A stretch of DNA of 64,000 nucleotides from Gordius albopunctatus (taxonomy: Eukaryota), in the NCBI GenBank assembly GCA_964276515.1, contig OZ193909.1, positions 7,378,001 through 7,442,000 of the forward strand, written 5' to 3'. Under the pieces are notes generated by a model. It did not search any database, was not told where the DNA came from, and saw only the letters and a program-made list of their open reading frames with translations. Position 1 is the stretch's first letter. Each line of letters opens with the position of its first letter. A program made the position numbers and the translations under genes. Positions 37,278 to 63,723 of this stretch are shown in pieces.

Positions 37278-38790
37278 TTATTCATCACAATCGTCAATAG
37301 CAAACACGGGCCATGTGTCAGAAAAAGATTTGTAATTATATTTAGCTATCAGAATGCCGCTTTTTTGGCGTAAAATAAACCTGGGTGAGTATTTAGCTTT
37401 GGGGGATCTGTTTCCTATCGATTTAAAAAAAGCTAATGCTTTTTTGCCAAAAGTGGCCGAACAGGAAGCTACTATTGGAATAAAGATCTTAGAATGAGCA
37501 ATGGCTCGGTATTTGAGTGTCTTGCGATCTTCGGCACAAGAAAGTGGGTTATAATTATTATTAGTTGGCGCAAAAATATCTATGCAGGTAAAGTCCCATG
37601 CTAGGAACTTACCATCCTCCCAGGGGATCATAGAAGCTCCGTCGGGACGCATTCTACCTTCTAAAGAAAAATCGGATGGTTCAAGGATGGAAGGAGTTCC
37701 GGCCTTTTCTAAAGCCGATTGGATTAAAAGGTTTATCTTTCGATGTCGGATAAAGCGATATTTGTTTAACTTGCAATGAAGTGGGTGATGAGCCCAGATA
37801 TCTATTTCCTTATTGCAATTTTTGCAGGGATATCCTATGGTAACTTTAATACCTAGGCGGAGAGCTATTGCATACGAAACTTCTGGATTTGAAAGCAAAA
37901 GTCCTGAGTGTTTACTTGGGATACATTCAAGCCATTCGTGACCAGAGTCGGCCGTAAGTGACCTGAGATTAAAATGCTGCACAGTATCACAACTCGAAAG
38001 TAGGTAAGCGACGGAGCGCGATACTATACTGGCATCCCAATCTCGTTGTTTTACCGACTCCGTAAGGCTGGTTCCTGGTATGACGTTCTCATGCCAAGAC
38101 AATATGGCCAATTCCGTTAAAAAATCATTTGATTGAGAGGTTAATTCAAAAACAAGATCCTTCACAGATTTAAAGGACGAGAGAAAAGCCACAAGGGAAA
38201 TAGTGAGTGGGGACCTAATTCCTAAGCCCCCAAATTTGGTTGGAAGCGTGGCCTGCAGCCAGCTGGTATTATCAAAAGGTAGATTCAAAATTTTTTAAAG
38301 GAGATCTTTAATTGTAGATTCATATACTCTTAAAATATCTGTATGTAAGAAAGCAGCAGCTGATCTAAAACAGTGCTGAATTTTGGAGATGTTTAAAAGG
38401 TTTTTTATCATAAAAAAAGCTTGATGTCTAGGTAGTAGTTTTAAAAGATTAAATTTTGAGGCCAAAAAGACTAAATTCTTGTTTAAAAAGCTTTGTAAAC
38501 AGGTAGATCCACCTATTGGCGAGCCGAGCATTGATAGATTTTCTTTATTCACAATGGAATATGTTTTAAATATGGAATTTTGATCAAAGTTAGGGGGTTG
38601 TGAAACTTCGCATTTAGAATCATTAAGTGTTAGATTTAGGGATGCACAAAAGTCTTTAATTATATTAATTGCTTTAGTTACTTCTGCATGGCTGCCTGCC
38701 AAAGTTGCATCATCAAGATACCATACATGTAATGAAAGGTTACACTGGTTATTTATTTGATTTATTAGTTTTTGTATGCCCAACAAAATA
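37278..38790 (-). mobile_element. 5'-truncated CRE-like non-LTR retrotransposon (RT end + CCHC + restriction-like endonuclease)
   Basis: WYLDDATL, LGSPIG, WLQATLPTKFGGLGIRS, LRLG, CKNC..HHPLHC, RH, ILEP, RPDG, WDFT. Frameshift near 38290. Confidence 0.8.
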
Positions 38791-39903
38791 ATGGGGGTCC
38801 TAAATACGTTATAGTTTAGTTTTAAAGACAATTATAAAAACATAGAAACATAATATATATCTCAAACTTTTTATTTAATTTTTGACAAAATGTGATGTAA
38901 AATTTCCCAATATGATTGAGAAAAATGAAAAAAAACTTTTTTAAATATTTATTTCCCGTAAAAACACCAGACCGTCCCAGGAAGTAGATAACTAAGCGAT
39001 TAATGTTCTTCATTCTATATAATATTAATACTTTTATCATTTATCATATTTGTCTAAAGTTTTCTGCTAGAACCCATCAGGTTTGATAACTAAATTGCCT
39101 GCCAAGGCCAGCCAAAACGCTTTAATTGCCCAATTGACTAATGCTGTCCGAACTGCCGGAATCAAAATGACGATTTTAAATTTAAAATTTGATCTGATTG
39201 TAGAAGTTTGTGACAAAAAAATAGTAAACAATATAAAAAATCTCATTATGGTGCCCGCCCAGGCCTACTTAAAAATCTCAATTTAGAACGGTAGCCTGCC
39301 CGAACCCTTAGCCGAGTGGGCCCAGCAGGGAGCACAACTTTTTGGTTGTTTAACCCATTAAAACCCAAGAACCCCTCGATGAAAAAACTTGAAAATCAAG
39401 ATTTTTTATTAGTTTTATACCAAAATAACATCTGCATTTTATTTCCCGAAAAAACAATTCTAACTATATTTTTTAAAGCGTCGTATATATCATACGCTGG
39501 GAGACTCATATTTACCCCGCTATGTAATAATTTTAAATTATACGTAGTTAGCAAATTTTTATCTGCTAATACCTTCTTATAATAATTTAAAATATTAAGA
39601 TGAATGAAATCTAAATCAAAATTTTTATTCTCTAAGGATCAATACCCTCCCCCCCCTCATCCCCATTAGTCGCTCTATATTCATAAGTTTGGAAACAAAA
39701 TCCTTTTATAATAATTTTCTTCCGAATATTAGTATTTTAAACATTTATATAAAGAATTCAGCAATTAAAAATGCAATAATAATTTTCATTGCTTATTCAT
39801 TAGATCAATAATTAATTTATTAAAAGCCCTTATAAACGCCTATTAAAAGCGGCGCAACTTCTCTGTGTTGGGTTTTGGTAGACCAATGCTCAATGTCCTC
39901 GTA

Positions 39904-41325: not shown

Positions 41326-43591
41326 TGTGATACAAAAACACGACGAAAAAGTGTCCTGGCGTATATATCCAACGCCTTTATAAGTTACAACCAATTAACA
41401 ATAATTTGATCGCCAACGCGCGTGTAAATAACATCAACACGCAGGCAACTATCGTATCCCTGTAGGCACTTTACCTCTCTACAGTTCCCCCCTTTTTACA
41501 GACAAAATCCTTAAGGAATGCTGGCGGTTTCCGGCTACGTTGTGGGTATCTCGGTTCTTCCCTAGGCGTTCCTGTCTGGTTTTGGCTTTGTTCCCTTGTC
41601 GCACTTGTTACCCTGTTTTGTATTTGTACCCTTGGCGCATTTGTTCCCTCTTCCCTTTCTGATGATATTCTTTGTGACCACCCGTTCTCTTGCCCCAGCG
41701 TGGTCCAATCCAGGATTCTCCGTTTCCTTACTTGATCCAGATGTCGGTGGTGCTTTCTTCCCTGTGCCCATACATCGTAGGAACGACTCCCGTGTTTGGC
41801 CTTTATCGTGCCTTCCACCCATTTGCTTGGACCCAGGAACATGCGTACCCACACCAAGTCTCCTACGTTAAACATTCGTGGGTTCCCGGTCTCTACCCAT
41901 TGTTGTGGTACGGTTTCCCTTAATACCTCCCATTCGGTTCGTATACGCATTTTTAACATCATCTCTGCCGGGCTTTTATTGGTCGCGGGGTGTTTTGTCG
42001 ATCTATAGTTTTCCAGAAATCTATTTATCCCTACTTCCGACTCGTTCCTCATGATGGCTTCTTTCATTAATCGTACGTATCTTTCTGCCAAACCGTTCGA
42101 CGCAGGATGGTAAGGAGCTGTCCATCGCTGATTAATCCCTCTCATCTTGCAAAAGTTTTGTAAATCCTGTCCTTTGAATTGTGGGCCATTATCCGATATT
42201 AGCCATGGTGGATTTCCAAATCTGGTAAACGTCTCGGCAAGTTTTTTTATAATGGTTGTCGATGTGGTGTCTTCTAACTTAAACACCTCTACCCATTTCG
42301 AACTATTGTCCACCATCACGAGGTATGATTTACCCTTGAGAGGCCCCATGATATCGATATGTACTTGGACCCATGGTTTTTGGCTAGGTTGACACTCTAT
42401 CAACGGTGCCTTCTTCGCCGCCGTGGCCGTGTAATTGCAATTCCGGCATCCTTTCGCTACGCTCAATAAGTCCTCGTCGAGAGTAGGCCACCATATATAC
42501 TGCCGCGCCACTTCTTGCATTCGCTTGATACCCACGTGGCCCCTATGTAGTCTTTGTAGTACCGCTCCTCGTAACTTAGCCGGAATTAATATTCGTCGCC
42601 TTTGTAAAATATTATGTTTTTGGCTTCATGTAACTTTGGCAGGTGTTTTTCGTAGGAGCGTTTTAGCCCACCCGTGACCATTGTGTTTTGTTTACCTTTA
42701 ATCCACTCTTTTACTTGACGTAGCCCCGGATCATCCAAGGTGCGTTGTCTTACTACCTCCAATGAAATAAACGGATTCGTCGAGTCTTCTAGAATTTCCT
42801 CGGTAACCTGATACGCGTGTTCGTTCGGTTTCCTGGACAAGAAATCTGCCGCGTTTTCGGCTTCCTTGTTGTACTCGAACTTGGTCGTGTAGCCTGATAC
42901 CATGAGCGCCCACCTAGTTAGCCGAGGTGACCATTGTTCCTTGCCCTTTTTTCTCTGATCAAATATATATACTAGCGGTCTATGATCCGTCATAATAGTA
43001 ACGCTTCGTCCCTGTATAAATTCATTGAACTTTTTTAGTCCATACACCACCGCCAGAGCCTCTCGTTCGATCGTCGCATACCGGCTTTCGCTATCGTTTA
43101 ACGCTCTTGACGCATAGGCCACCACCCTCCAATTCTCTCCTGGTGCTCGTTGCTGTAAGATGGCCCCTAACCCTGTACTAGAGGCGTCCACGACCAGCCC
43201 CGTCTCCCAATCTCCATTAAAGTACGCCAGTACGGGGGCTTTCGTAAGGGCGGATTTGATAGCTTCAAACGCGCCTTGTTGTTCTCCACCCCAGTGGTAC
43301 ACCACATTTTTTTCATTAGTTTCTGAATCGGGTGTATGATTTTGGCGTAGTCCTTAATGAACTTTGAAAAGTATGCTGTTAACCCAAGGAAAGATTTTAT
43401 TTCTTTTTTGTTTGTTAAATTTTTCCACTGCTTGACTATCTCGGCTTTATTGTCGTTGATTTGAATCCCCTTGTTACTTATTACGTATCCCAAAAAGGTT
43501 ACTTCCTTCGCCCACAAGTTGCTCTTCGCGTGTAAATAACATCAACACGCAGGTAACTATCGTATCCCTGGAGGCACTTTACCTCTCTACA
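41326..43591 (-). mobile_element. Internally deleted Ty3/Gypsy LTR retrotransposon (Mag/K02A2.6-like)
   Basis: RT tail (FLGY), RNase H (VDASSTGLGAIL, YASRAL, EREALA, TDHRPL) and integrase (HIDIMGP, SDNGPQF, YHPASNGLAER). PPT AAAAAGGGGGGAAC precedes a TG..CA 3' LTR at ~41326-41483. A 65-bp 5' LTR remnant at 43527-43591 has 2 mismatches to it. Confidence 0.9.
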
Positions 43592-44469: not shown

Positions 44470-46295
44470 ATTTTATGTGTATATAAAGACAAACTATTAG
44501 ATATAATTCATTCCATTTTTTGACTAAATAAAATCTTTTTTTTCCTTTACTTAACCTCTTTCTTAATATTATATTAATATTTATAGGGACGAAGGCAGCT
44601 ACATAATGGTGACCTCAAGTCAGAAAATGGAAACTCAAATTGACGAAGATTCGCATGGGGAAAACGCGTTATACTATAAACTCCTCATCTTTAACATATT
44701 AAACCCAAGAATTTGGTTCATTCAAATCGAATCTCTTTTTAAAATACGTAAAATTAAAAATGAAGTATCTAAATTTGGTTATCTCACCGAAGCCTTTTCC
44801 CAAGACCCAAGAAGTGACGTCAGAAATTCAAGATCTATTAGAGAACATAACTACCGAAGCTCCGTTTTCAAAACTGAAGGACGATCTACTTACAAACGTA
44901 GAACTAGGAGACCGAACCCCATCAAAACTACTGCGTTATATGAGAACTTTGTTAGGAAACCATTCAATGGACGACATCACACTCAAACTTGGATGGACGA
45001 ATTACCAGCTTCAATGAGCAGAATACTAGCGATCTTCGCCGCAGATCAAAATATCGGCCACCTACCACGTAAGCCCTATAATTAATTCTGTAAATCCAAA
45101 CCTAAATAAAGAGATTGATGATCTAAAAGAGCTGGTAAAAAGCCTGTAGATACATTTAAAAAAACATACAAACAGTACGATAACGATCATTCTCCACACA
45201 TTGGTCCTATTCTTGAACCACACGTTTATCAAATAAAAACGATCCGAAATTTTATTGGAATCACAACAAATTTCAAGAAATAGCTACCAAATATGTTGAG
45301 CCTTGCACGTTCCTACGCCGAGAATCAAACTAACAGGCCGGCCAGAACGGCCTCCAAACAACTAGTCGCTTGTTCTATATTTATGACGAATCATACAATT
45401 TTAATTTCTAAATTGATACAGGCGCGGAAATTAGTGTGATACCTGCAATAAAGCAAGAACGACTAAAATTATCCAATATACAACTTCAGCGAATTCCAAT
45501 GCCATAAAAACCTATGGGCAAAAATTTCTAACTTTAGATTTAGGCCGCAAAAGACCATACCAATAGATTTTTACTATAACTGATGTAAAACTTCCAATAT
45601 TAAATGCAGATTTTTTAAGTTACTTTAACTTAATAGTGAATATTAAAAGGAAACAACTAATAGAAACACAAGATCCATCAAACTGCACTTAAAGAAGTAA
45701 ATTCACAATTAGCTTTAGTAAATCCTTCTGAATTTAATTGGTTATTAAAAAAATTCCCCGCCGTTTTCAAACCCACAAACTATACACCAACAACAAAACA
45801 CCAAAAGGGCCGCCAATATTTTCCAAACCTAGACGTTTGAATGCCAAAAAACTGAAGATTGCCAAAGATGAATTCATGCACATGATGGATATAGGCCATC
45901 AGAATGTCAAATACCATATGGGCTTTACCACTTCACATGGCACCCAAAAAATAAAGAGTGGAGACTATGCGGAGATTATCGGGCTCTCAATATCAAAACC
46001 GTTTCCGATTGCTACCCTTTACCTCATATACACAATTTTTCACTTTCCTTGGCAGGTAAAAATATATTCACTAAATTCGATTTAGTTCGCGCTTATCACC
46101 AAATTCCGATGGCACCAGTAGATATCTAAAGAACCGCAATCACAACCGAATTCGGTTTATTTTAATTCTTACTCATGCCTTTTGGTCTAAGAAATGCGGC
46201 ACAAACGTTTCAAAAATTTATTGACAATATTCTTAAAGGATTGGACCATACATTTGCCTATATTTAGATGACATATTAATCGCCAGTTCTTCACT
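44470..46295 (+). mobile_element. Degenerate Ty3/Gypsy element (LTR end, PBS, gag, protease, partial RT)
   Basis: ...CTACA followed by TGGTGACC PBS-like site at ~44607; gag-like WFIQIESLF; protease FLIDTGAEISVIP (~45405-45445); RT pieces [34 protein letters not shown]; many stops and frameshifts. Confidence 0.82.
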
Positions 46296-46299
46296 TGCA

Positions 46300-47481
46300 G
46301 TACACAAAGTGCACGTCGAACAAGAGTCCAGATTACAAACAGACTCGAAGGTACTTGGTGATCTTGCCCCCCTCTCAGTCAATGACCAGAATGACAAATT
46401 AGCAAAGTTTTTCACCCCATCCCAGAGTAACCAACTCCATGTCAACATTAAGTCCTGGTTCTCCATTGAAACCATTAATTTAATCGAGTCCCAGTATAAC
46501 GTCTTTAAGGATAAGACACTCAGAAACAAAAAAGCATGGGTCCAACAACTCACAAAAAAGATCAAAGCTACAATAAAAAAGGACAAGGCTAATTACTTAT
46601 AAAGCAAACTAAAAGAAGCAGAATCTGCTGCTCGCATAAACAGTACACACACCCTTTACAAATTCTCAGGAACATCACCGCAAAATTTGCAGATAAATAT
46701 AAGTACAACACAATACAAAACGAACATAGCTCCAACGATTCTTTGATCCAAATGGAGGCTTGGGAGAACCACTTTCGTCCCATTCTAGATCGCCCTTATT
46801 CAATCCCCTGTTCCGACATATTCCTTGAATTCATTAATAACTTTAAAATATCGACCACCCCTTGTATCAGAGTAGAACCACCCTCCATGAATGAAATAAA
46901 ATACGTTTTAAAATCCCTGAAACTTCACAAAGCTCGATGCGGACAAAATCATAGCTGAAGCGCTTAAGGCTGATTACACCCTATCTAGCGAACTCTTGCA
47001 TCAAATTTTCACAAAAATCTGGCAACAAGAGATCATCCCCCACGCTTGGTCTACCGGTCTTCTTAGTAAAATCTATAAAAAAGGAGACCCATCCCTTCCC
47101 GACAATTATAGAGGAATCACAATTATAAATAACATTTCCAAGGTATTTATAAAATAATATACATGGGGATATATACATTCATTGACGCCAATTTAAAAAA
47201 TAACTAAGCCCGCTTTCGTAAATCTAAAACCACAATTGAGCAAGTCCTAATCCTCAAAAATTTTATTGACATCTTCTCCAAATCTAAATCACCTTTAGTC
47301 CTAACATTTGTCGACATTCATAAAACTTTTGACTCCCTATCCCATCTTTACATATGGGAATCTTTATGCCTACTAGGAATCAGAGACCAAATTTGCCCAG
47401 CCCGCTGCCTGAACCTGCCGGCCCGGCAATGGTGTCAGATGGGACTCAATCTTAGCTTGCCAATTAAGTAAGTAAGTAAGT
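46300..47481 (+). mobile_element. Degenerate RTE-like LINE fragment with 3' (TAAG)n tail
   Basis: IYKKGD..DNYRGITI and FVDIHKTFDSLSH motifs in broken frames, then a jump to a 3'UTR-like stretch ending TAAGTAAGTAAGTAAG at ~47465-47480. Confidence 0.75.
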
Positions 47482-49115
47482 TTGCCGCGAAGACGCCCAA
47501 GAGCTTAGTTAGTGCAATCTAAGGTTGAGCCGCTTCTAACGCCAAATGGCGCATCAGGCCACGTTAGTGATAACGTGTGTAAATATGCTGTAAAAAAATG
47601 GTTACCATGCAGTGTAATTATGACATGTAAATATAATATACCTATTGACATGAAAGTAATGTAAAGCCTTTAATGATAAGGTCGTAAATGAATAGTGCGT
47701 GAGGAGATCCTTACTGGGGGAGCCGCAATAATTTATTCTTTGAGAAGTCTTTCCAATGGGCAGCAATGAATTCCAATCATGACCCATTGTTTGGACATCG
47801 CGGAACACCTTGTAAAGCCAGTTGGGTGGACACCAGAAAAGGGAAGATAGAAAGTAGTTGGTTCCCTTCCTTCGCACTTGATGTGCCAAAAAAACCCATT
47901 TTCTCGCGAGTAGAATATTTTTAATTGGAGCGATTTTGCAACGCACCCATAGATCCTCGTTGGTTATTCTCATCGGATAAAATATCCGGCAAACGATACG
48001 TAGCATTTTATTAAGACTGACTTGCAGCTTCTTTAAGCTAGGAGCCTTCAGCGACCGAGATTCGCAACCGTATAGGAGGATTGGTAGGATCGTGACTTTG
48101 AAAATCCTCAAACGCGTCTGGAGCGCCAGTTGACGTGAGCGCCATAACACCGAGCATGATTAGGATTTGACCATGGTCCGACGGAGCTTCGATTCGGCAT
48201 CCGCTTTGGCGTAGGTATCTGGAGTAAGGTCCACTCCCAAATAACGGACTTTTTGAGATGCATTTATTACGTTGTTGTTGATTACCAGAGTAGAGTTCGA
48301 AGGATCGTTTATGCAGATCATTGAGCATTTGTCGGGGTTTACAAACAGTCCTGCTTGCTTGGCTTGGATGTTGAACCTGTCTAACATTAGTTGTGCTTTG
48401 GAAATAGAAGAGGCCACTAGACATATGTCGTCTGCGAACAGCAGGGATGATAGAGTGGTGTCGTTTAGTTTGATACCATCGGTCGGAAGTGTGGATCTCT
48501 TCATTATTAGATCCATCGCAATTATAAAGAGGAGAGGAGACAGCGGGCAACCTTGCCTGACACCAGATGTTACTGGTAAGGGTTCCGATTTGTGGTGGAG
48601 GTGGGAGATAACTAGTTTCATGTTTTCGTAGAGTAGAAAGCTCATGAGAGTTATTTTCTTAGGCAAGCCTAATAGGTAGAGTTGTTAAATGGCTAACTTT
48701 CTTCAAACTCCAGACGCGACCACGCACACTGAGTTGCTTAATATGCGCGTTAGCACAATATGTGCTCTCTGTTTGGTGCACTAGGCAGAGCAGTAGCATG
48801 TAAAAATGCTCGAGGACCGAGCAGAAACTCGAGCAGATGGTAGCTGGAGTTTAAGAAAATTAGCAATTTAACAACACTACTAATAGGCATAGCGCTTTCT
48901 AAATGTATAGATGGCACAGCGAGTCAAAAGCTTTAGCGAAGTCTAAAAACACAAGAACCAGGGGGGAACCGCTTGTCCGTGAGATATCCATTATGTTCCT
49001 TAAAGTTATTATGTTCTCTGTCGTCGTACGGCACTTCCTAAACCCTGTTTGATTGTTTTTAATTATTTCATCCACCTCGCTGTAAATTCGATTTAAGCTA
49101 AGCTCTTGTTTGGGC
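47482..49115 (-). mobile_element. Degenerate RTE-like LINE fragment, tail-to-tail with the previous one and interrupted by a MITE
   Basis: QTGFRKCRTTTENI, FLDFAKAFDS, GVRQGCPLSPLLF, LFADD, YLGV, ILLYGCES. Confidence 0.85.
48677..48879. mobile_element. ~200-bp hAT-type MITE
   Basis: TIRs TAGAGTTGTTAAAT / ATTTAACAACACTA; perfect 8-bp TSD CTAATAGG; splits the LINE RT. Confidence 0.9.
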
Positions 49116-49309
49116 TTATTCATACATACATTCATACATACATACCCGCGGTTTTTGAACTAATTATTTAGCAATAAGATCTTCCCTTTCATTATTTTAC
49201 TTATAAAATCCATAGACTAGATAAAATCACATTTTGCACTTGCTTCATACTGAACCAAAATTTTATGCTTTCATTTTTCTTATAAAGATAAAAAACAAAA
49301 TTTTTAAAG

Positions 49310-52300
49310 ATGGCACAAAGTATATTTTAAAATAATTTCTAAATGTTTTTATAGAAGATTCTATTTTTGTCCAAGAAAGTCAAGATTATCAAACCTCCAA
49401 CAATGAAAAACAGTAATATCATTTTTTGTAATTTTAATATTTTTAGTATATATGAAGCCCTTACTTATAAAAACAGTAAGAAATTTTGAGTATGCTTAAG
49501 TTGTTTAAGTAGATCAAAATTATCATACAAATTCAAATGATGTCTCAATATTTGTTGCTGAAACAGAAAATTTTGACACTCAATTAGACAAGTTTAATGC
49601 TGATGATACTGTAAATTATTCGCCTCCACGCAAAAAAATTATTGTTGATTCTCAAAATGTTAACTCTTTATCCCCTCCTCTATTTGGTAATTTATATTCA
49701 TTTGCTGTCATTCTTTATAGATGATTCTACCCAAGAATATAAACATGAATACAACTCATCTCCTGATATTAAATTTACAAATAATTTGTGTCCTAAAAGT
49801 GCAGTAAATATCTAATTTGTTGATTAATATGGAATATGATCTATTAGAACACCAACAAAAATACAAAATCATCTGATTTTAATAACTTTCATGCACATGA
49901 AAAGGCAGTGTATTCAAGTAGTGAACCTAATAACATCTCTCGTCATCTAAAGCTTCAAATTATAGGTATAAAAATCTTCAATTTATTTAGATTTAATTTA
50001 TAGGAGCACAAATTAATGATTATGATTTATTGAACACAATTGATAACACACAATATGTGGATTATGAAACAAGGTTAAAAATGGATTCTTGCAAAAATAG
50101 TCAACTAATTCTTACTAATCCTCAAAATAGATTATCTAATATAATCAGTCATGGTAATTCTTACGCCATACTAATAACATACTTATCAAAGTTTTTATTA
50201 AAAAGTGATATTAATATTTACTTTTTTGGTGAAAAGGGGTGGGAGTGAATGGTAGACAGAAAAGAAGGGTGTAGTTTTAATTTTTAAAGTAAAAAGTTTA
50301 TTTAATTGTTAACAATTGCAATTTATTTTATGTAACAAACTAATATGATTAGTGTATATATAACACTTAAAACCATTTTTAGCACCTAAAATAAACTTAC
50401 ACATTATTGTTTCAGACATTAAAGAGTAATAATAGCAAGTAATTGTTTCTAAAAGTTAAAATTTTCATTCATAATAACACATAATATATTGCATTTTTAT
50501 GTATACTAATTTTAAATATCTCAAATTGGTTTGCAGAATTTGTGCCCTTTGTTGCTTATAATTAACACATAAAAGAATGTGAGCTTTTCTCAATAAAATA
50601 ATTGCACTAGGATATCGGTTTAATTTTTCACATTCCTAAATAATTCTTGACAATGAGCATCATCATGCTATCTTATTTGGTTCAGATAGATTTTTTTTAA
50701 TTTCCTTTCTTTTTCTCCTACAATTTGTGCCTAAGTACCTTGCTAAAATACATTCAATTAATGGCTAAAAAGAATGTTCCAATTTTTCAAATTGTACAAA
50801 AATTTTATGGCACTGGCAAAATAATGACACTTTTGATTTTAGAGAATTTGAATTTCGGCTTAATAAAAATATTAAACCTAAATAATAAAAATATTTATAA
50901 CTGAACAATAAAAAAAAATAAACATTTTTAGCTGCAATAAAAATTCACCTGTCCATACCTAGATCTTATGAAACATTTAAATACAAAAGTTAAAGCATTA
51001 ATATTCTAAGGGAAAAATGCGTTTTTTTAAATCCGCTATTTATTCAACATTATTAACACCTTTGTTTTAACATCTCAGATTCTGTAAACATTGTAATTAT
51101 TAATTGTATAGAAATTGCAAAAAGGTTGCCAATAAACGTAACATACCCACTTAGATGTTTTTTGATTATACTTTATGACCTCTTTAATTTTTTGTATACG
51201 GACATTCCATGTCAAATCGATCATAAAAAGGCGCTTTTCGGCCGACCCCCTCAGAATTTTATAAAATTTGGTGGAAATGTTAAAACTAGTAAAATTATTA
51301 TTTTGAGCTCATTTGGGTTACTACTTTTGGAGTTGTGGGCGCTCAAAAGTCGAAAATCGGGCTTTTAAAAAATCGGTCCGTGAGGCTATAATTAATAAAA
51401 TTTATAGGTTATTGGTCCCCAAATCTTAGAATCTTGTTGTAGAGATAGGTAAGACCTATCTATGGAAAAAAATCACAAAATTTTTTATTTATTGATTGAT
51501 CAACTTATAAGAGCCGATATGGCCTAAATAGCATAATTAATGTTGAACCCTCTCAAACCGTTTCAAATTTAAGACAAATATTTTATACTATCTATTAATC
51601 AAATTAAATAAAAGAAAAAGTTGGACGGCCATTTTGAAAGGGTCATAAATTGTTAAAAGGATCATTTTATGATTTTACGCCAAAATGAATCTCTAAAAAT
51701 GTTTTTTTGCTCATTTAGTATCCATATTATTTTAATATATCTATGATGCAAATACCCCCCCCCCCCCCCATATTCCCCCTATCAATTACAATCAAAATAG
51801 CGAGTGATTAATCTTCCCCGAAAGCTATAAATTTAATTTTTTTAATAGAAACAGCTGAAAAATGGCCTAAAATAATTTTAGTTTGCTATGCAATTTATTT
51901 AAATAATATTTTTATAGCTATTTTACGAGCCTGTTTTTAACATAAATATTTATTATTAGATGTCGAATAAAAATCAATAAATATATACTTGTACCTTCAA
52001 CTATATTGAAGTAATTTAGAACTATTACAAATTCTCTTTCATTATTTTTTTTAGAATTTTTCTTCTAGAACCTCTAAGTAAAAAATGACATTTAATAATG
52101 TGGCTACTATTTAAATTTTATTAAATCTTGACTATTTGTCATGGAGGTTTTATTAATAAGTATTTAATGATATGAGGCCCTTTAAATATTTATACTGAGG
52201 CCAGAGTTGTTAAAGTTTTCAATAGGGTAGCAACTTTAAATTCTTCTTTGCTACTTATAAATGATGACGATAAAAGTTAAAAATTAACTGAAATAATATG

Positions 52301-55300
52301 CTTCAATGATTGTATTTTACATTTTTAGAAAGCCAAACGGATCAACCTCAAATAGATGCACAAACAGCCATTTCCACTGCTTGTTCGTAAGTTATATAAT
52401 ACTTTTTAGATGGTTTTTCTTGACATTCAACCTGCCATGGGCAACCAACTAACCTTTTCCACTTTTTGATTTAGAATTTATAGCACACAATTACAATTAT
52501 TTAATACTTTTTTATATGAGGTACTCTCGTTTTTTCTTAATTGACATTCTTCTTAATTTCTTTAAATAACTCCCTTGTCTTGTCTACCACGAACGGCCTT
52601 TGGATCTTTAATGACTTTTAACTATTTTGCACTTAGTTTTATTGAATTTTTGACTTTACCGTTTGCCAATTTATCCCACAAATGTAAAGAAATTTCAAGA
52701 ATATTAATTTAAACAAAATTAATAATATAGACAAAAAATTTATTAAAGGTGAGTAGAGGAAAAATGTATATAAAAATTCTTGACAGCACTAAGAGCCAGA
52801 TAATTCAATGATTTTAATTGTCATAATAAAGCTTGGGTTTTTATTAAAAAAACGACATGCCTAATTTTTTGATTTTGATATTTTGTCAGAAATATCAACA
52901 GCTAAGTATAACAAACAATAAAATTAACAATTATTGCAAAGTCATAAAATCATAAAAAAGCAAAAAAAAATTGTGAAAATATGACTTAAATAATTTTGTA
53001 AATGGAAAGAATGGCAGGAAAACGTCTACTTATTTAATTCTAAATTAATAAATATAGCATATTTAACTAAAAAAGTGGTCATTTGACCGCCACGACACAA
53101 ATAGGTATATGTAAAAAGTTGGTCAATATAGTGTTAAAATTAGGCAGGTTTGTTACATAAATTTATTCATACATGATTTCAATGATGATCTTTGTTAAAT
53201 TTTATAGAAACGCTGTAGACGGATGTGCTTGCAACACCAGAAAACAAGTAAAATTTTTAAACTTAAACCTTAATTTTTCCATGTAGCTCAGGGCTAAAAA
53301 GAGAAAGGGGTTAGTGAAAAGTGGTCGCCTATCATTCAGGTACATACCCAATTATAATGAAAGAATCAACGTTGGTTTTCGCCTATTATATTTTAGTCAA
53401 AAAGTGACGAAAAAAGTTCTCAAAAAATATGCAACTCAGCAGCATTCGCAAACTACTGCGCCGGCCACATTAAGCTCAGCCGGAAATCCCCGGTTTTCTT
53501 CTGTTTTGGAGCGATTGTATAATGATCAGAATGGTCCTAGAACATCTTTCAGATTTCAGGAGTACCGAGATAGCAATGTTGCCACGCAAAACAAGGGGAA
53601 AGTTAAGAAAACATCTGATCGCAAATCGGTAGTGACTAAAAGGACTACTAGGTCTAATCGATCCATCAAGCAAAAGTCAGCATTGGTAAGTTTTGAAGTG
53701 TCCATTGAAATTTCATTTTTGCAAAACGTATTGTATGTTGTAGAAAACGCCAGAACCGGTTAGAAAAAATATGCTCACGCCTAAAACCCCGAATGATCTC
53801 GGAGTTGTCCCCTTGATTATAACATCTACAAATTCATCCGACGCATTTAGGCAGGCACCCACTTCCAAAAGTAATTCAAGCAAACTAATTGCAATCATAA
53901 CAATCTGTAGTTTTTGAAATTATATTAGAATGCAAGTTAAAGCTAAATTTTTATGGGGAACTCCGATTAAAGGTCCGTTCTACGCTTGTCTTACTTATTT
54001 TTTAATGCCTTTTTATCGTTTTGGAAAAATATAAAATTCTCCAGAAATCAAAAATGAAGCAAATTGGGCATTAGTTTTTGTTTTATTTGATTAAAATTAG
54101 ACGTTTAATTTATATTTTAGCGGAAACTTTGCCTGCTCTCAATGCTCAAACAAATAACAGCGGACGTGGAAAGATAAATATTAATTTGGCACCACAATCA
54201 AGTATCAATTGGTTGTTATATTTTATGAAGGTGTTATTGGATTTTCATTAAACTAAAACAGTTTTAAAGCTATTTTGTCTTTATAGAAAGAGAATTGTTT
54301 GTTAAGCTATTTAGTTCGAGCAATTTATTTTGTACATTAAAAAACTTTTAATTACGCCTCAAAATTATAATCTTAATTTATTTGCAACTTTTTAATACAT
54401 ATCTCACCAAATATTTATAACGTATAAAATATTTAAAAATATAATGCGGAATCAATTACAAATTTATAATAATCAAAATATGCCTTTAAAATTGTTTTTG
54501 AGGCTAAAAAAGAATGATTTCACTTTGATTATATTTAGTTTAGGTAGCTAGCAATCTTTTAGAATACTTGTTATTTTAAAATGAAATGAAGGTTTAGGTA
54601 AATTTGTGTTCTACAAGCTTGTGCATACCGTTTTTCCTAAAAAAAAGATCGGTTATTGACGTACAATCCCTCAGGTTTTCACCCAAGTACTAGCGCATCT
54701 CCCATTTCCATGCAAGGAGGGGGGGCCTGGGATCGAGAAGTCAAAGAGATTTACGCTTTCGTTACATACTACACCATAACTAAGAGGTGGCTAGGCAGCC
54801 AAGTGGTTGAAGAAATCAAAGAGAACGATGTAATTGTGGAGGCGATTTGCAGTTAGAGCCCTGCAAAATTGAATTTTATCGGCCCGAGCCCGAGACTTTT
54901 TTTTATTTTTTGCCCGAGCCCGATTAGTTTTTTTTCACTCAGACCCGACCCGAGCCCGGCCCGACTTTTGTAAAAATGTAAATTTGTACCAATTTTATTT
55001 CAAAAATTTATTTATAAATATATTACTTATCGCGAATATTATGTGATTTAAAATATGAATAATTATGGTAAATAAATAAAGTGGAGTCTAATTTCTCGGG
55101 TTTTAACGAAGTCCTTCTCTCTTCGTAAGCTCGCCCAGCTGTAGAAAAGGCTCGCTCACTGCTAGCTGATGTAGCAGGTATTGCCAAATACTTTCTAGCC
55201 AAATTGCTCAAACAAGGAAATTCACTCTGATGCATCTTCCACCATTCCAAAACTTCCATACCATCAATATAATTCGTATTTAAATATTTATGTAATTCAT

Positions 55301-58300
55301 CTTCCTCAGCTTCGTTATCTATTCTGGGCTCTTCCCAACTACTAAAATCTAAAAATTCTTCCTCCATTATATTATCTAGAAAAATAATAAGTGCTTAATG
55401 CAAATTAAAAAATTACCATGCTCGACGGCTATACTAGGCGTAACTGTATTAACCGGAGGATTAGCCTTAATCCTTTCCTCCATAATTATTAAATTTCGTA
55501 TATGATGATAAATGTCATCAAATTCATACCGAGGCAGCATTATTAAATTTCGATACTTTGGATTTAATAATGCGGATAATTTATGAATAATATCAAGTTC
55601 AAATTTTGAATTTAAAAACGAAAGGGCCTTTTTGGCCAAAGTGTTTATCTCTTCGCTAAAAAAGGGTTTTTTCAAACATCTTAAAATCAAACAAATTAAT
55701 ATATGGGGGGTAGTAAAATTCTAAATATTCATTTGTAGGGGGATTATTTTGTGTTGTAATTATATTTTGGATTAATATTTATTCAAATTTTTTTCAGGGC
55801 TCGGGCCACGAGTCGGGCTGACCCATCAGGCCCGATCCAAGCTCGAGGCCCGATCAATGTTTTAAAATTTGTCCGAACACGGCCCGAAAGCCCGTCGGGC
55901 CGGGCCTCGGACGGCCCGTGCAGAGCTCTATTTGCAGTGTGCTTTTCATTGCTCCTCCTTATTAATGTTTATTCTTCCTTTGGTTTGGATATTAATATAT
56001 TGCGTAAACATTAACATCGAGTCGTAAAGTAAATTCAAGCATTTGATACAGGCGGAGGATAATTGGGGTGAAAATAGTAGATTTAGTCAACCCTTCCCCC
56101 ATCCTCGGATGATGATACCCTTGCAAATATACATTATTCCTCCATCATTTTTATAACAATTTTATTGATTTTGTAATAAACTAACATATGAGCTAAATGA
56201 ATATCCGAATAGCCGTTTTATTAAATATTGAAAGATTGGTTTTGTTTGATAATTTTACACTAGTTTGGCAAAAATATTTTTGGCATTTTTTTTAATGTTA
56301 AGTCTAAGGTCTATGAAATTAGGAATCATGTTTAAACCTTTCTTAGGGCAGAGATTTTTAATTGCTATGCAATTTATGGGTTTGTTTTTTGTTGTCAGTT
56401 ACCCTCCAATTTATTTACACCAGCTTCCCGACCTAGAGGCTCGAGTTCAATCCCCGAAGAGGACAATTTTTTTTAATTTTTTAGATTAAATTTATAATTT
56501 GTTCTTGTTAATAACATGGATAATATGACTTTTTCACCTTCCGCTGGCTACTGACCAATGAAAAAAATGACCATTGGCCAAATAAATCGAAATTTTTTTT
56601 CCGGTTTTGAATTGGTTAACATTGATAATTACCCTATGCCCTCCACTAGAAGGGCCTATACCTCTACTGATATGGGTCCCTGTGCCCCTACAAAGGCGTA
56701 TGCCTCTATTAATGTGGGTTCGAATCCCGGCGAACGTTCTGAATTGCTGGTTCGATACCCGGAGAGAACAAAATTTTTATTTTTTTAAATTAAATTAATA
56801 TATTGTTCTTGTTAATACCATTGATAATATGACTTTTTGACCGTGCCCTGGCTACTGACCAATAGAAAAAATGACCATTGGCCAAAATGTGAATCGAAAT
56901 ATTTTTTTTCAAATTAATATATTGTTTTTGTTAATATAATAAATGTGTTAATGAATGAAAAATCTGGTATTTTAATTGAAATATATTATAATGAATTCTT
57001 TTTTCCTTATTACTATATGTTCGTAAATGTATACTTATTAAACACTTAAATTATCTCGTAACCATAATTAAAGTTTTGCAATTTTGTATTTTTATTTTAC
57101 TTACAGTATAGGCTCAATCAATCAACATTTCAAATTTTAACTTTAAAATAGTACAAAGTTTAGGGCTTAAATATAATAATAAAATTAATGATATTTTTCT
57201 ATGCTGATTTTATTTATACTATATACTAATCCAAATGCTGGCTACGCCCATGAAACCTTCTAAGGACCTATATAAATTACAATCAATTTCCCAAAATATT
57301 ATGTTTAATTCTGCTATTATTAATTGCTATGCAAATTATGGGCTCACTTTCTATTTTCCGATGTCTGTCGCGCACCGAATGTATTGTCACGTTTTTCGTC
57401 GTGTTTAGCACTGAAACCGCTTGGAAGTGGGTTCGATACCCGGGGATGCCAATTTTTTTAATTCAATGGAAAATTTGTATTAATAATTAACTAATTATTT
57501 TGCATTTACTACCCTCCTATAAGCAATCTCGCCCATAAATTGCATAGCAAATATGCTACATTTATACGGAGTATAGATGAGTCGTTCCCCCTTCCCTCCT
57601 GCCCCTCTCTCCCCACTTCCCTTCCCCTCCTCCCCTTCCCACGAGGGCCGAAGGCCCCAGTTTTATATATATAGGGACATTCCATGTCAAATCGCCACGT
57701 TTTCGGCCGACCCCCTCAAAATTTTATGAAATTTGGTGGAAATGGTTAAACTAGTTAAATTATTAATTTCCGAAAATTTTAGCTCATTTGGGTCACTGTT
57801 TTTTGAGTTGTGGGCGCTCAAAGGTCGAAAATCGGCCATTTAAAAAATCGGTTCGTGACGCTATATTCAATAAAATTTATAAGTTATTGGCCCCCAAATC
57901 ATAGAATCTTGTTGTAGTAATAGGTAAGACCTATCTCCATAGAAAAAAAAATCAAAAAAATTTTTTTTGTCGATTGGTCATCTCATAATGGCCGAAATGG
58001 CATAATTACTGTAGAACCCTCTCAAACCGTTTCAAATTTGAGACAAATATTTTATACTACATATTAATCAAATTAAATAAAAGAGAAAGTTCGGCGGCCA
58101 TCTTGAAGTGGTCATAAATTGCTAGAAACGATATTTTATTTATTTGGCGCCAAAATGACCCTCTAAAATTGGTTTCATTACTCATTTAGCCATCTTATAA
58201 TATTATTATATCTATTATACAAATATTTTTGCTATAAATTCACACCCCAACCCCCCCCCCCCATAACCGCTATAAATTACAATCAAAATAGTAGAGTTGT

Positions 58301-61300
58301 TAAATTGCTAACTTGCTTCAACTCCAGCCACCATCTGCTCGAGTTTCTGCTTGGTCCTCGAGCATTTTTATATGTTAATATTCTGCCTAGTGTACCAAAA
58401 GCGAGCACATATTGTGCTAACGCGCATATTAAGCAACCCAGTGTGCGTGCTCGCGTCTGGAGTTTGAAGAAAGTTAGCAATTTAACAACTCTACAAAATA
58501 GGGACTGATTTTTCTGCGAATAGGCTACAAATTTAATTACTTTTTGAAAAATCACCTTATATATTTTATTCCAAAGTATATATTCATTGCTTCTTATTCG
58601 ATATGTAATTTAATTATTTATAAAAAAGTATGACGGAGGGCATGTCTTCAAGCGCATATAAAAAATTAATTTAACATCATTTGAAGTATATTATGGCAAT
58701 ATGTTTTGATGTCGGATCAAGCATTTCGCTTTTAAATATAGTATAGGTTCTCCCGGTTGTGGCTAAAGGTGATACAATTTTTAATATATCCCATTTGTTT
58801 AGAGATAATTTGTGAAATTTATTTGGGAAAGCGAAAGAGTTGACGGGGCCCGCATGGGTTAAGCAAACTAACTATTATTTTTTCGTCGTCATAATTTTTA
58901 TTATAAATTATATTTTCAATTTGGAACGTGGAGGGGAAAATTAGCTGATAGTATAATTAAATGATAAAATAATTTTATTAAAATTCGCGCTAAAGGGCCA
59001 TACAAATTAATTCATACGCGCCAAAAAAGAAATAAATCGGTGTTGATAAGGCATTTTTAAAGCCTATATTCGATAATCCTGACGATTTTATTATCTATTT
59101 TACGAGCCTGTTTCCAAACTACAATAAAATAATTTGTGTAAAAAAATCACTCCCTATTTTGATTGTAATTTATAGGGGTTAAGGGGGGGGGGTTGCGGTG
59201 TTAATTTATAGCAAAAATATTTGTATAATAGATATTACTAATATTATGAGATAGCTAAATGAGTAATAAAATCAATTTTAGAGGGTCATTTTGGCGCCAA
59301 TTAAATAAAATACCGTTTCTAGCAATTTATGACCACTTCAAGATGTCCGCCGAACTTTCTCTTTTATTTAATTTGATTAATAGGTAGTATAAAACATTTG
59401 TCTCAAATTTGAAACGGTTTGAGAGGGTTAAACAGTAATTATGCCATTTCGGCCATTAGGAGATGACCAATCGACAAAAAAATTTTTTTGATTTTTTTTT
59501 CTATGGAGATAGGTCTTACCTATTACTACAACAAGATTCTATGATTTGGGGGCCAATAACTTATAAATTTTATTGAATATAGCGTCACGAACCGATTTTT
59601 TAAATGGCCGATTTTCGACCTTTGAGCGCCCACAACTCAAAAAACAGTGACCCAAATGAGCTAAAATTTTCGGAAATTAATAATTTAACTAGTTTAACCA
59701 TTTCCACCAAATTTTATAAAATTCTGAGAGGGTCGCCCGAAAAACGCCTTTTTATGATCGATTTGACATGGAATGTCCCTATATATATATTGACTTTTGG
59801 AGTGTTATACTTGTAACAATTTTGCTTTCAAACGCGATTAGACTGGTGTTATAATTAAAATAATACATTATAATCTTATATTGACAATGTATATACGGCT
59901 TATAGATTGTGCAAGAGCCATGCCTGATTGATAGTATCAAAGTTAAAGGCCTCAACTATACCCCAGCCAATGTTGTTGGAAGGGTTGTGGAACGTCCTTC
60001 TTCTGGAAGTCGCCTTGCGGATATTAGCTCATCCGTCAAAACTGGTAATCTTTAGTTCTAATCATTAGTATCTATCTAGGGAACAAACTATCTCAATGAT
60101 CTGTAAACAGCTTTTGATATATTATTTAAAATATTATTTTGGATAACAAAAGTATGCAGTTATGTTTCTCAAATTTATATGCTCAAAGAAGGGCGATAAA
60201 AATAAAAAATAGGGAAGTGAGGGTGAGGGTTATCTACATTTCCTCTACAAAAATAAATATTTATCGTATATATTCGATTATTTAGCCGACGATATTCAAG
60301 GGTACAAACCCGTCAGGGTAAATCCCTCACCCTCCCTATGCAATGATTCTGCTCTCGTGCAATTTAAAGGGGATGAGGATGCCAGCGTGAAAACTTTGAA
60401 ACAAACGCGCTTATTCAAAACACCATTCAGGTCTGGCCCCAAGCTATCCGTTGACGCTCAACGGGCGACGCTACATCAATGTTGTGCAGCGCTCAACGTT
60501 AAAGCATCCCCGGCGCAAATGCGCTCACTGCAGAAAATGATATACGGCGATGGTAACATCTAAAAGCTGGCGTGCTATTTAAATCTCCAACGTGATTTTA
60601 CAATGAGCCTATTAAGTCATTGTGGCTGGGCTTAAATATCACTCTACTTCTCGACCGCTGATAAACATTAAAACCTATAGTGCTTTTAAAACTTATTAAA
60701 ATTTGTCGAATCCGTTATAATCGTGGATGAACATTAATTAAATAGGTCATGTCCATAACAATATGCAGCTTTTATTAATTAATGCACTGAATATTATAAA
60801 GGGCGACTCCCTTGAACCCATGAGATAATTAATATTTGACTCTAATCATTAAAATAAAGATCCTTCAGCAAGTTTAAAAATTATTTACTAGCTTTTTTCG
60901 CTTATAACTGCATTTTATATATATTATTCTCCATATTTATTCGAGTTTATAATCATTGATAGAAACGGAACTGGCTTGTTCACCTCTCCCAATAAATTAT
61001 ATGCGCAAGGCTAGCATCATTATAGCGTCCGATTCAAATTCTACAGTCCCAGAAACAATGGACGAATGTATCCCCACGTCCATCCACGAAAATGACTTGA
61101 CACATACTGGTAAAACTAAGCCTAGAATCAGTAGTCCACGCCTGGTAATAAATAAGTTGCCTAATTGTAAATCGCCCGCTAAGATTAACAAGGAACTCCG
61201 AGTTGCTTCAAATGAAGGTATTTGCACTGTCATCCTTTTTGATATCCAAATAAACACGTTCAAATTAGACTTAAGGAGGTCTTTGTTGTTTTTAACTCAA

Positions 61301-63723
61301 ATTTCTACTAAATAATTGTCTATATTTGGTGTTTCATTTGCAATTATATTTCTGACCGACGAAATTTCCGTCACCAACATTTATTTGTTGTTATGATTGC
61401 ATTTTGTTCAGACTTAGATTTTATTATGCATATAGGAGAAGACACGGTGATAAATGATGACGATGTTACAAAAGCTGCCTCCTCTAACGTATCAAAGTTG
61501 AAAATATCGAGGCTGGAAAGTGTTATCGAAATCCTTGACAAATTAAAAATTAATATGGTGTGGGCCCGGTGGAGGAAAAATGCACACCTCTACCCCGGAA
61601 AAATTGTGGGCACAACTACCTCTCGAAAATTAGGGAAGAAAACGTGGCAAAAATTTAAAGTTAAATTTGTGGACGGGGATTTGGCTGTATGCGATGCCTG
61701 CGACATTTTACTCACGAAAAGACCATTTCATACAAAGTCGAGCGACGTTGCGTCGGTTGTCTATGACATACTTAACATCGAATTCCCGCACAACACACCG
61801 GTGCTAGCCAATTTATCTACGCCCTCAGACGCTTCGAAAAACAAGGTTTGGTATGAAGAGTGTTTGATCATCAATAATGGTTCCGACCAGAACAGTGATG
61901 GCCAATCGCCTATGTTGTGCGTCCGAAGGAAGGATGACAAAGGACTTGCCCTTGGCAAGGAGGAAGTGCATCGCATATCGTTTGAGCAAATCGTTCTTTC
62001 GGAAGGGGCCATGAAAGAAGCGGGCGTAGACATGTCTTTCTTGCCCAAGTTGTCTTGCCTGCTACAAGATTTATCGGTGAATAGCGATAACGCTACCACG
62101 TCGAATTCCTTATCAGAATCTCATAATTCAACGAATAAGGCTCGTAAGGACGACACGTCGAAAATTGACGAAAGCACGGCAGGAATTTATCGAACCCCTA
62201 CTAAATTGGAACCGGGTGCAAGCTCGTGTGCATCTCCCCCACTTCAAGGTAAGAACGAAACAACGAAAGCTGGAAAAGGGAGACGCGGCGTTGGTACGTC
62301 ACCATCCAAAGCTCTCGCCAAAGAAGCTACAAAAACGGACACTCCAAATCTCTCCATCCTAGGGCCCTTATTACCTGAAGGTTTTTAGTTTATAATTTTG
62401 ATGGTTTTTTAAAGGATAAACCATTTCTTCCCAGTAGAAATCGTTTTTTCACGGAAAACTTTGTAAGTAATGCCTCTAAAAATCTTACGTTAGTTTTTTT
62501 CCTTTAAATGATCAATTCATGCTCCTATAGCATATTAAATCGTATTTACTTACAATAAAACCAAGTGATAAGATTTTTAAATTAAAATTTTATTTCAACG
62601 AAAACCAAGTCACACATATAAACATTCTAAAATGGGCCAAGAGTCGGCAAATGCTTTAAAGTTGTATTGCACAGTAAGAATTCCCAAATTGTTGTCTAAG
62701 TAAAATGGAGGTGTAAAATCTAGATTTCGAGAACCTTTACGATTTCTTTGAAATCTATGGTTTGTTTACCGAAGGTATACCAGAAGAAAGCAACAACCGG
62801 GATAATAATACTAGATGCCAAAAGGGCAGAATATTTAGTATTTGTTTATTAAACTATTATGCTTTTTTAAGTCCCAATCAATATATTTAATAAAAAATAA
62901 TGGTAGTTTACATATAAAATATAGGAAATTTTTTTAATGTGTAAGATCTTGATATTTGGAACCATGTAAAATGGAGTGCCTTTAATTATAAAATTCACCC
63001 TCTCAACAAGGTTCTTTATTATAGCCTTTGCCAAATTGTGAAAAAATATAACATATTATTTACAATTTAATACTTAAGTTAGAAGTACACCGTTTTGAAT
63101 TAATTTCTATTTATTTTGACTAGTATTTTTGGCAGTTGTAGGAGGTATTAGTATTTAAATATAGTTTGCTCCTGTACTTGCAACTTTAATTAAGTGCGAT
63201 AACATCTAATAAAATTAAACAAATAGCCAGAAATAAACATGGTAAAATACGAGAATATCTTATCACTCGCCTTTAATGAATTCAAACTTAGAAAATAAAA
63301 CCCTTCATGCGAATTTGATACTGCAATAATTTAAATTCCCCGATTTGGCCTTGAAATTTTATGTACAGTTTTAGTTAGCCATGCAATAGAAATAGATGGA
63401 TGATACTACTGCCTAATCGTACCTTGTTATTGCCCTTTAGGATGTAAATTAATATAACATTTGATTGAGTTAAATTTACATACTTCAATTTATTAACAAT
63501 TAGGGAGTCAAATATTCAAAGAAATCTCCTTTTTGTTGACCCACAAACCCAGTGGCAGTGAAAAGGGTGAGAACAGTGCATCTATTTCAAAAAGTCCATC
63601 GATAAAGAGAGCGACCCGATCTAAAGTGAGGTTGCCGTTCTCCAACTCTAACGAAGCCCGCAACTCTACGTCGTCAAATTCATCATCCAGTTTGAACGAA
63701 TATCCCACCATAGAATTTAACAA
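49310..63723 (+). CDS. TP53BP1: 53BP1-like DNA-damage mediator, 3'-incomplete; predicted exons 49310-49319, 49355-49412, 49447-49475, 49513-49686, 49721-49803, 49848-49965, 50004-50153, 52329-52386, 53208-53247, 53287-53339, 53397-53685, 53744-53870, 54121-~54230 (end uncertain), 59906-60044, 60963-61217, 61436-62380, 63504-63723
   Basis: Tandem Tudor VWARWRKNAHLYPGKI...KFKVKFVDGDLAVCDACDILL...PHNTPVLA...QIVLS resembles human VVAKWSSNGYFYSGKI..KYKLLFDDG..KDILL..PLDTEVTA..AVILS. The spliced junction LGPLLPEG|SQIFKEISFLLT...IEFNK resembles human LGPLPLNKTLFLGYAFLLT...PPFNK at the start of BRCT1. The N-terminal exons are phase-compatible and rich in SQ/TQ. One phase link (exon 54121 to exon 59906) and the ATG are inferred. 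Confidence 0.85.
51200..51950 (+). mobile_element. Single arm of the long-TIR family
   Basis: GGACATTCCATGTCAAATCG start, colinear with 57674-58290. Confidence 0.75.
54854..55930 (-). mobile_element. hAT deletion derivative with transposase C-terminus, in a TP53BP1 intron
   Basis: TIRs TAGAGCCCTGCA / TGCAGAGCTCTA; perfect TSD TTTGCAGT; SALLNPKYR, VLEWWK..FPCLSNLARKYLAIPATSASSERAFSTAG. Confidence 0.92.
56361..56935 (+). repeat. Tandem B-box-containing repeat units; related copies at ~25365-25616 and in the TIR-bounded 57322-57552
   Basis: GGTTCGATACCCGG followed by a shared GGCTACTGACCAAT..TGACCATTGGCCAAA body; TTGCTATGCAA.TTATGGG terminus shared with 57322-57552. Confidence 0.65.
57674..59779. 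mobile_element. Long-TIR (~600 bp) non-autonomous DNA element, superfamily unassigned
   Basis: GGGACATTCCATGTCAAATCG..CGATTTGACATGGAATGTCCC flanked by (TA)n. 57674-~58290 is an almost perfect inverted copy of ~59150-59779. Confidence 0.88.
58292..58493. mobile_element. Second copy of the ~200-bp MITE, opposite orientation
   Basis: TIRs TAGAGTTGTTAAATTGCTAACTT / AAGTTAGCAATTTAACAACTCTA; perfect TSD CAAAATAG; internal sequence is close to the reverse complement of 48677-48879. Confidence 0.92.

Follow-up and report, generated by a model that had tools for sequence, protein, structure and literature searches.

Can six introns of only 34–44 nt follow one another directly at the 5′ end of an animal gene and, if so, do they point to a specialised splicing mode or to an ordinary size class of the host genome? 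The question is raised by a locus in a stretch of 64,000 nt of DNA, which we analysed as a whole and call the window. A preliminary description of its letters had placed seven small exons and six very short introns in a row at the start of TP53BP1. We consider it likely that these are ordinary introns of the major (U2-type) spliceosome, gathered at the 5′ end of what is likely the 53BP1 gene of a probable horsehair worm. They would belong to a putative genome-wide class of minimal size of about 34–44 nt, although 28 introns from three genes are too few to define a genome-wide mode.

Coordinates and reading frame of the six-intron block

A direct check of the letters found the seven introns of the preliminary description, of 35, 34, 37, 34, 44, 38 and 39 nt, exactly where they had been placed, and all of them start with GT and end with AG. 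The first six, which form the block, and their exons are as follows.

49310–50153, + strand: seven small exons with 622 nt of predicted coding sequence, the S/TQ-bearing N-terminus of the likely 53BP1
49310–49319, + strand: coding part of exon 1, from the predicted start ATG; the DNA upstream is AT-rich and stop-rich
49320–49354, + strand: intron 1, 35 nt, GT–AG, phase 1, 89% AT; model weight 0.97
49413–49446, + strand: intron 2, 34 nt, GT–AG, phase 2; model weight 0.99
49476–49512, + strand: intron 3, 37 nt, GT–AG, phase 1; weight 0.75 with the codon term and 0.10 without it
49687–49720, + strand: intron 4, 34 nt, GT–AG, phase 1, rival acceptor at 49735; weight 0.94
49804–49847, + strand: intron 5, 44 nt, GT–AG, phase 0; weight 1.00
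49966–50003, + strand: intron 6, 38 nt, GT–AG, phase 1, rival donor at 49918; weight 0.89

The seven exons measure 10, 58, 29, 174, 83, 118 and 150 nt, and the next donor lies at 50154. The claim that they form a single open frame held: with the six introns removed, the frame is open from the ATG at 49310 to the donor at 50154, whereas the unspliced frames are rich in stops. None of the six introns is a multiple of three. Retention of any one of them leads to a premature stop (6/6), which lies inside the intron itself in five of the six cases. With a stop in each retained form, retention would be policed.

The DNA itself was compared with contigs from X1 and X2, two runs of one study, which lack GT–AG joints and are DNA-like. 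One contig of X1 covers 49151–51224 with two differing letters, both of them intronic, and hence the sequence in this interval is not an assembly slip. The depth of the DNA contigs over 49500–51000 was at the single-copy level. Within intron 6, an A/T difference occurs at 50000 in both runs.

Several controls addressed the role of chance. Donor and acceptor matrices were derived from 18 further introns in the window, taken from the TyrRS gene, the Unc-4 gene and the longer downstream introns of the 53BP1-like gene; together with 1308 codons, they make a small training set. In the real 1-kb region, the longest coding path through introns of 25–60 nt measured 726 nt. Paths of at least 622 nt were found in none of 2000 Markov shuffles (maximum 558 nt) and in none of 166 non-genic tiles (maximum 351 nt). 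When open paths were searched by splice score with no guidance, the best one consisted of just these six introns and a spurious seventh. The score of 13.7 with this seventh intron was matched by 0 of 300 shuffles, but without it the score fell to about 10.9, below the 11.3 reached by the best shuffle. Splice score alone is hence weak evidence, because its margin disappears with the spurious intron. Real AT-rich tiles also gave chance chains of three to five pseudo-introns in the splice search. Related tandem repeat units of about 120 nt at 15400–16330 and 2430–2880 yielded a chance chain of four pseudo-introns.

We also ranked all 27,972 open paths from the ATG to the donor at 50154 with introns of 20–150 nt, without a length prior. 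The path described earlier took 8th place when splice score was used by itself, rose to 2nd once a codon term entered at half weight, and came 1st at full weight, where it held a weight of 0.56. By splice score alone, intron 3 preferred a form of 112 nt and intron 6 was near even. The 3′ end of intron 3 is the least secure of the six, with rival acceptors at 49587 and 49566. Taken together, 49310–50153 is very probably coding and cut by short introns, and five of the six predicted boundaries are firm.

An alternative is that the region is coding but that some boundaries are wrong (intron 3 being 91 or 112 nt, intron 6 being 62 or 86 nt), or that the seven 5′ exons are a small gene of their own, unlinked to the Tudor exon described below. 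Six short introns in a row in 53BP1 would then be an overstatement. The rival junctions carry weights, with the codon term, of 0.16 and 0.08 at intron 3 and of 0.05 each at intron 6, and higher weights without it. Yet the long rival introns remove stretches that are stop-free and coding-like, and at introns 3 and 4 they remove S/TQ sites as well. Furthermore, exons 2–7 have an AT content of 69–76%, compared to 50–65% in the downstream exons of the 53BP1-like gene; however, AT-rich 5′ exons and GC-richer 3′ exons recur within one proven gene, TyrRS. All 19 exons of the gene model also join in phase over 1083 codons with no stop, and in 53BP1 a phosphorylation region at the N-terminus likewise precedes the parts for dimerisation, Tudor and BRCT. 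Overall, we regard wrong boundaries or a separate small gene as rather improbable.

The gene downstream of the block

The favoured model, in which the block is the 5′ end of a larger gene, is a phase-compatible, stop-free chain of 19 predicted exons at 49310–63723 on the + strand, with 1083 codons, which runs off the window. Its introns measure 35, 34, 37, 34, 44, 38, 2175, 821, 39, 57, 58, 250, 473, 5076, 241, 410, 218 and 1123 nt. Downstream of the block, the main features are these.

50154–52328, + strand: intron 7, 2175 nt; a high-copy repeat occupies about 51200–52000, where depth rises about 100-fold
53248–53286, + strand: intron 9, 39 nt, GT–AG, a multiple of three with an in-frame stop at its end
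54675–54829, + strand: predicted exon, with which the exons of the chain agree in phase
54830–59905, + strand: intron of 5076 nt, filled with repeats and including a hAT element
61436–62380, + strand: exon of 945 nt with similarity to Crb2-type Tudor domains; its match to PF18115 is below the cut-off
63504–63723, + strand: last exon in the window; the gene continues past the window end

The 57-nt intron at 53340–53396 is optional, since it is a multiple of three and free of stops. A form of exon 13 that reads through to 54230 was replaced by a donor at 54202 followed by the exon at 54675. This exon, which we take to resemble the oligomerisation region of 53BP1, gave no match in Pfam, PDB or the Atlas. 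Two further short candidates, of 35 nt at 60045–60079 and of 34 nt at 62381–62414, were rejected, as the frame stops right after each of them and longer introns fit.

The S/TQ region of 53BP1 is N-terminal. In the model, seven S/TQ pairs fall in the first 210 residues and six in the other 873. The frame of the block had been called SQ/TQ-rich, and its first 207 residues indeed hold six S/TQ pairs against 2.3 expected (P ≈ 0.03), but this enrichment is only modest. The Tudor exon matched Tudor_3 of Pfam (PF18115) at E 3.4e-5 with 24.1 bits, under the gathering cut-off of 25.8. In the Atlas, its first matches were unnamed viral clusters with low recognition, and Tudor-clan clusters (0.83–0.85) appeared as leads only. 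A homologue search with this exon gave 5922 candidates, none of which passed, and 0 matches in 1.84 billion representatives; the comparison with PDB gave no meaningful match. The single-sequence fold of the Tudor region had a pLDDT of 33. The start of the last exon resembles the first strand of a BRCT repeat, and the search of this exon against Pfam gave no match.

Dimerisation, Tudor and BRCT parts make up the layout of 53BP1 in the portion of PMC3648578 consulted. The predicted gene at 49310–63723 is likely 53BP1: the S/TQ-bearing start and the sub-threshold similarity to Crb2-type Tudor domains favour the name TP53BP1 given at first. The union of the 5′ exons with the Tudor exon, also part of the first account, is likewise suggested by the phase-compatible open chain of 19 exons, from which the link is deduced. 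Differences between the window and runs X1 and X2 are consistent with the model. Five of five indels checked in the 53BP1-like gene fall in modelled introns. Outside the high-copy repeats, at least four exonic differences are synonymous and at least six non-synonymous, which lends weak support to the downstream frame.

Short introns in other genes and the identity of the host

Two other host genes of the window, and two transposases, were examined for introns of the same size.

23044–23078, − strand: intron 1 of the mitochondrial TyrRS gene, 35 nt, homology-anchored
13778–13816, − strand: intron 4 of TyrRS, 39 nt, homology-anchored, directly after an intron of 8731 nt and an exon of 102 nt
55376–55416, − strand: 41-nt GT–AG intron of a hAT transposase that sits inside the 5076-nt intron of the 53BP1-like gene; the downstream exon matches Dimer_Tnp_hAT at E 3e-25
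31514–31551, + strand: 38-nt GT–AG intron in a second, decayed hAT transposase (Dimer_Tnp_hAT, E 7e-22)
4041–5963, + strand: Unc-4 homeobox gene, with introns of 81 and 136 nt

The TyrRS gene at 23194–11794 on the − strand has nine predicted exons, which encode a complete, stop-free protein of 427 residues, and introns of 35, 67, 8731, 39, 135, 95, 408 and 607 nt. Compared with three bacterial TyrRS, the spliced model gave E values of 9e-68 to 2e-54. The alignment was gapless at the 39-nt junction against all three bacterial enzymes and at the 35-nt junction against two of the three. These two are the best-anchored of the predicted short introns of the window. A single 41-residue TyrRS exon used as homologue query found nothing. 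The class I signature motifs of the protein look altered (HLGN and KHSKS, each within a single exon), and its C-terminal part is short compared with the three bacterial enzymes.

The two hAT transposases belong to diverged families, and their short introns (38 and 41 nt) share one codon position, which precedes the dimerisation domain. The hAT element at about 54880–55920 is present at very high copy in runs X1 and X2. A 40-nt GT–AG stretch at about 3914–3953, near the 5′ end of Unc-4, may be another short intron.

Nine of the 28 introns predicted in the three host genes measure 34–44 nt, and none measures 45–56 nt. The run of six among the 18 introns of the 53BP1-like gene had a probability of about 0.005, a generous value since the locus was picked for this run. 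If these selected six are set aside, three of the remaining 22 introns (14%) fall in the 34–44 nt class. The predicted class is not special to the 53BP1-like gene. The short introns had also been said to coexist with multi-kb introns filled with transposable elements (TEs), and this was borne out by introns of 2175, 5076 and 8731 nt, with LINE, hAT and other repeats.

The host was assessed from the core of Unc-4, a divergent gene whose last exon is 1.3 kb long. Among the best 120 of 855 proteins, its best true match was Gordionus sp. m P0004 (79% identity), with 81 identities against a median of 72 in the same best 120. At 25 residues the Unc-4 of the window departs from the majority; P0004 shares 11 of these 25, three of which the window has in common with P0004 alone. 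In a tree of 65 distinct rows (121 before duplicates were removed), the window grouped with P0004 at 100/94 and not with the Paragonimus row P0020. These data come from one gene with 98 columns and a long branch, and one flatworm was among the best 120 matches. The host is probably a horsehair worm (Nematomorpha) of a species other than Gordionus sp. m. Hence, on Unc-4 alone, the introns probably do not belong by descent to the micro-intron class of neodermatan flatworms.

Splice signals, origin and comparison with other short introns

The 11 predicted short introns, including those of the two transposases, have a median length of 38 nt and a mean AT content of 82%. The donor is GTA and the acceptor TAG in all 11. 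Minor-class (U12-type) introns have an extended donor consensus, and a U12-type donor was found in 0 of the 11. Branch-like motifs are loose; most of the 11 have one between about −11 and −18, intron 4 has none there, and such motifs are expected by chance in DNA of 82% AT. The specialised splicing mode suggested at first is not supported by these data. The splice signals are of a plain U2-type, and a 32–37 nt mode, 5′ clusters and a second, kilobase mode have been published together for flukes, tapeworms and monogeneans.

A modified spliceosome could nevertheless serve the short class, for example one that can do without a polypyrimidine tract or without U2AF, or one with altered parts of the U1 or U2 snRNP. 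A G stands at donor position +5 in one of the 11 short introns and in six of the 16 longer introns; apart from T-richness, the short introns have neither a clear branch motif nor a pyrimidine tract in common. Furthermore, a reduced GTA donor has been published for myxozoans and Dicyema (PMC13644364, in part). But the difference at +5 is not significant (Fisher P 0.18), no donor is U12-type, and according to the same part of that paper, myxozoans with introns of 22–27 nt retain U2 snRNA pairing and both U2AF subunits. We consider such a modification, judged from these signals, unlikely.

There is an even smaller chance, in our estimate a very slight one, that the run stems from a recent burst of intron gain, in which a small mobile element (introner-like) entered a fast-evolving N-terminus. 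Intron density is 9.6 per kb of coding sequence in the block versus 4.6 in the rest of the gene, and the borders of intron 6 carry a direct repeat of 7 nt. However, pairwise similarity among the 11 short introns does not exceed that of shuffles (55 pairs; best pair, P 0.79), none of their 20-mers has a second copy in the window, and contig depth over the block is single-copy. Border repeats are at most 1 nt in nine of the 11, and no terminal inverted repeats stand out. An introner origin was rejected, as the 11 short introns lack its marks, namely similar copies, border duplications and terminal repeats. Since each is single-copy and shows no relation to the others, the introns do not appear to be an introner burst.

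Ordinary U2-type introns of minimal size have been described in other animals; the comparison draws on parts of PMC6530080, PMC4040987 and the supplement of PMC6157073, on part of the main text of PMC13644364, and on its table S14. In Opisthorchis felineus, intron lengths peak at 37, 90 and 3000 nt, and the micro-introns adjoin one another and favour 5′ ends; intron definition has been proposed for them (PMC6530080). Modes of 32–33 nt beside one near 1 kb are given for Schistosoma, of 35 nt for Fasciola, of 34 and 73 nt for Echinococcus, and of 43–44 nt for Strongyloides and Meloidogyne, with 45.9 nt for C. elegans (supplement of PMC6157073). Gyrodactylus salaris has modes of 32 and 58 nt, of which the short one dominates positions 1–2 (PMC4040987). 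In table S14 of PMC13644364, the RefSeq introns of Gordionus sp. m RMFG-2023 have a minimum of 30 nt, a 10th percentile of 43, a 25th of 88, a median of 355 and a 90th of 4041 nt. The 10th percentile is at most 43 nt in 13 of the 51 species of that table, and 38–45 nt in nematodes. The statement that the introns are shorter than the usual nematode mode and of a size seen in few animal lineages therefore agrees with the published values, with the window class below the 45.9 nt of C. elegans and 13 of 51 species at or under 43 nt.

Trematodes have a short mode beside a kilobase mode in repeat-rich genomes; the window resembles them in its short introns next to kilobase, repeat-filled ones and in its clusters and 5′ bias, but its host is probably an ecdysozoan. 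The clustering concerns introns 1–6 of 18, and intron 1 of TyrRS is also 35 nt. Dominance of the shortest mode at the first intron positions is likewise known from monogeneans and cestodes (PMC4040987, PMC6157073). In Gyrodactylus, however, it is confined to positions 1–2, whereas here the short run spans positions 1–6 of one gene. The splice sites of Opisthorchis micro-introns are nearer to consensus, while the donor here seems reduced to GTA, a difference that is not significant. Flatworms have a second short peak at 58–90 nt; the window has introns of 57, 58 and 67 nt, its 28 introns being too few to judge. Every element of the preliminary description hence has a flatworm precedent, because the data for flukes, tapeworms and monogeneans match it.

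Gordionus, of the same phylum as the probable host, also has a short class beside long introns, with 10% at or under 43 nt, close to the 14% (3/22) in the short class here. It is known by quantiles only, and the part of the main text of PMC13644364 consulted makes no mention of horsehair worms, of their mode or of clustering. Nematodes, the sister phylum, have short modes as well, but the window class centres a few bases lower, near 37–38 nt, and unlike nematode minimal introns it sits among much longer TE-filled introns. Myxobolid myxozoans and Dicyema are parasites that share the reduced GTA donor and short introns flanked by short introns; their introns, however, measure 20–27 nt and are the majority class, whereas those of the window measure 34–44 nt and are a minority (PMC13644364). 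No paper on a short intron mode or on clustering in Nematomorpha was found in the open literature searched, and the word intron had no occurrences in the main text of two horsehair-worm genomics preprints. The pattern itself is known from parasitic flatworms, and it is not discussed for horsehair worms in the papers searched.

In the explanation that we favour, each short intron would be recognised across the intron (intron definition) by the major spliceosome, which would allow the tiny exons (10–58 nt) between short introns to be spliced. Introns may shrink by deletion to a lineage floor near 35 nt, and transposon insertion may lift an intron to hundreds or thousands of bases, as in those of 2–9 kb; together, both processes would produce a size distribution in two parts. 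The short class may be convergent with the micro-introns of parasitic flatworms. A bolder version, to which we give an even chance, holds that horsehair worms independently evolved a flatworm-like micro-intron mode near 36–38 nt, which clusters at 5′ ends and uses a signal trimmed to GTA...TAG. This mode would be the shortest among moulting animals in the published tables compared (which leave out the arthropod rows of the PMC6157073 supplement). Resident DNA transposons would keep introns at that size, and a further parasitic lineage would have converged on very small introns with no reduction of its genome.

Should the class be genome-wide, horsehair worms would be added to the parasites whose introns lie well below 45 nt (flatworms, orthonectids, myxozoans and dicyemids), and its presence in a repeat-rich, non-compact genome would separate minimum intron size from genome compaction. 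With a floor near 40 nt, annotation would disrupt the 5′ ends of such genes as the 53BP1-like one. The early warning that gene finders miss such introns is also given for Opisthorchis, whose micro-introns are under-annotated through default length floors (PMC6530080), though the RefSeq annotation of Gordionus reaches 30 nt. Three annotations in table S14 of PMC13644364 have minima of 40–41 nt. Claims of gene loss in horsehair worms that build on annotations with a floor of about 40 nt would deserve checking, and public genomes and transcriptomes exist for Nematomorpha.

Several repeats surround the genes. Open reading frames identify two LINE copies at 17659–20661 (−) and 34115–37092 (−), which we take to be RTE-like; of these, the former is almost complete and is located within the TyrRS intron of 8731 nt. 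LINE-like remnants occur at 37278–38831 (−) and 46600–49160, one of which ends about 150 nt upstream of the start of the 53BP1-like gene, and broken pol remnants of Gypsy-like retrotransposons at 41471–43541 (−) and 44567–46130 (+). Short open reading frames at 26706–26765 (+) and 29498–29752 (+) resemble pieces of a THAP-type gene or transposase; the latter had no match in Pfam. In base composition, 5′ exons are about 70% AT and 3′ exons about 50–65% AT, both in the 53BP1-like gene (49310–50153 versus 52329–63723) and in TyrRS (23194–22650 versus 13918–11794), and in both genes the shift falls at a long TE-filled intron.
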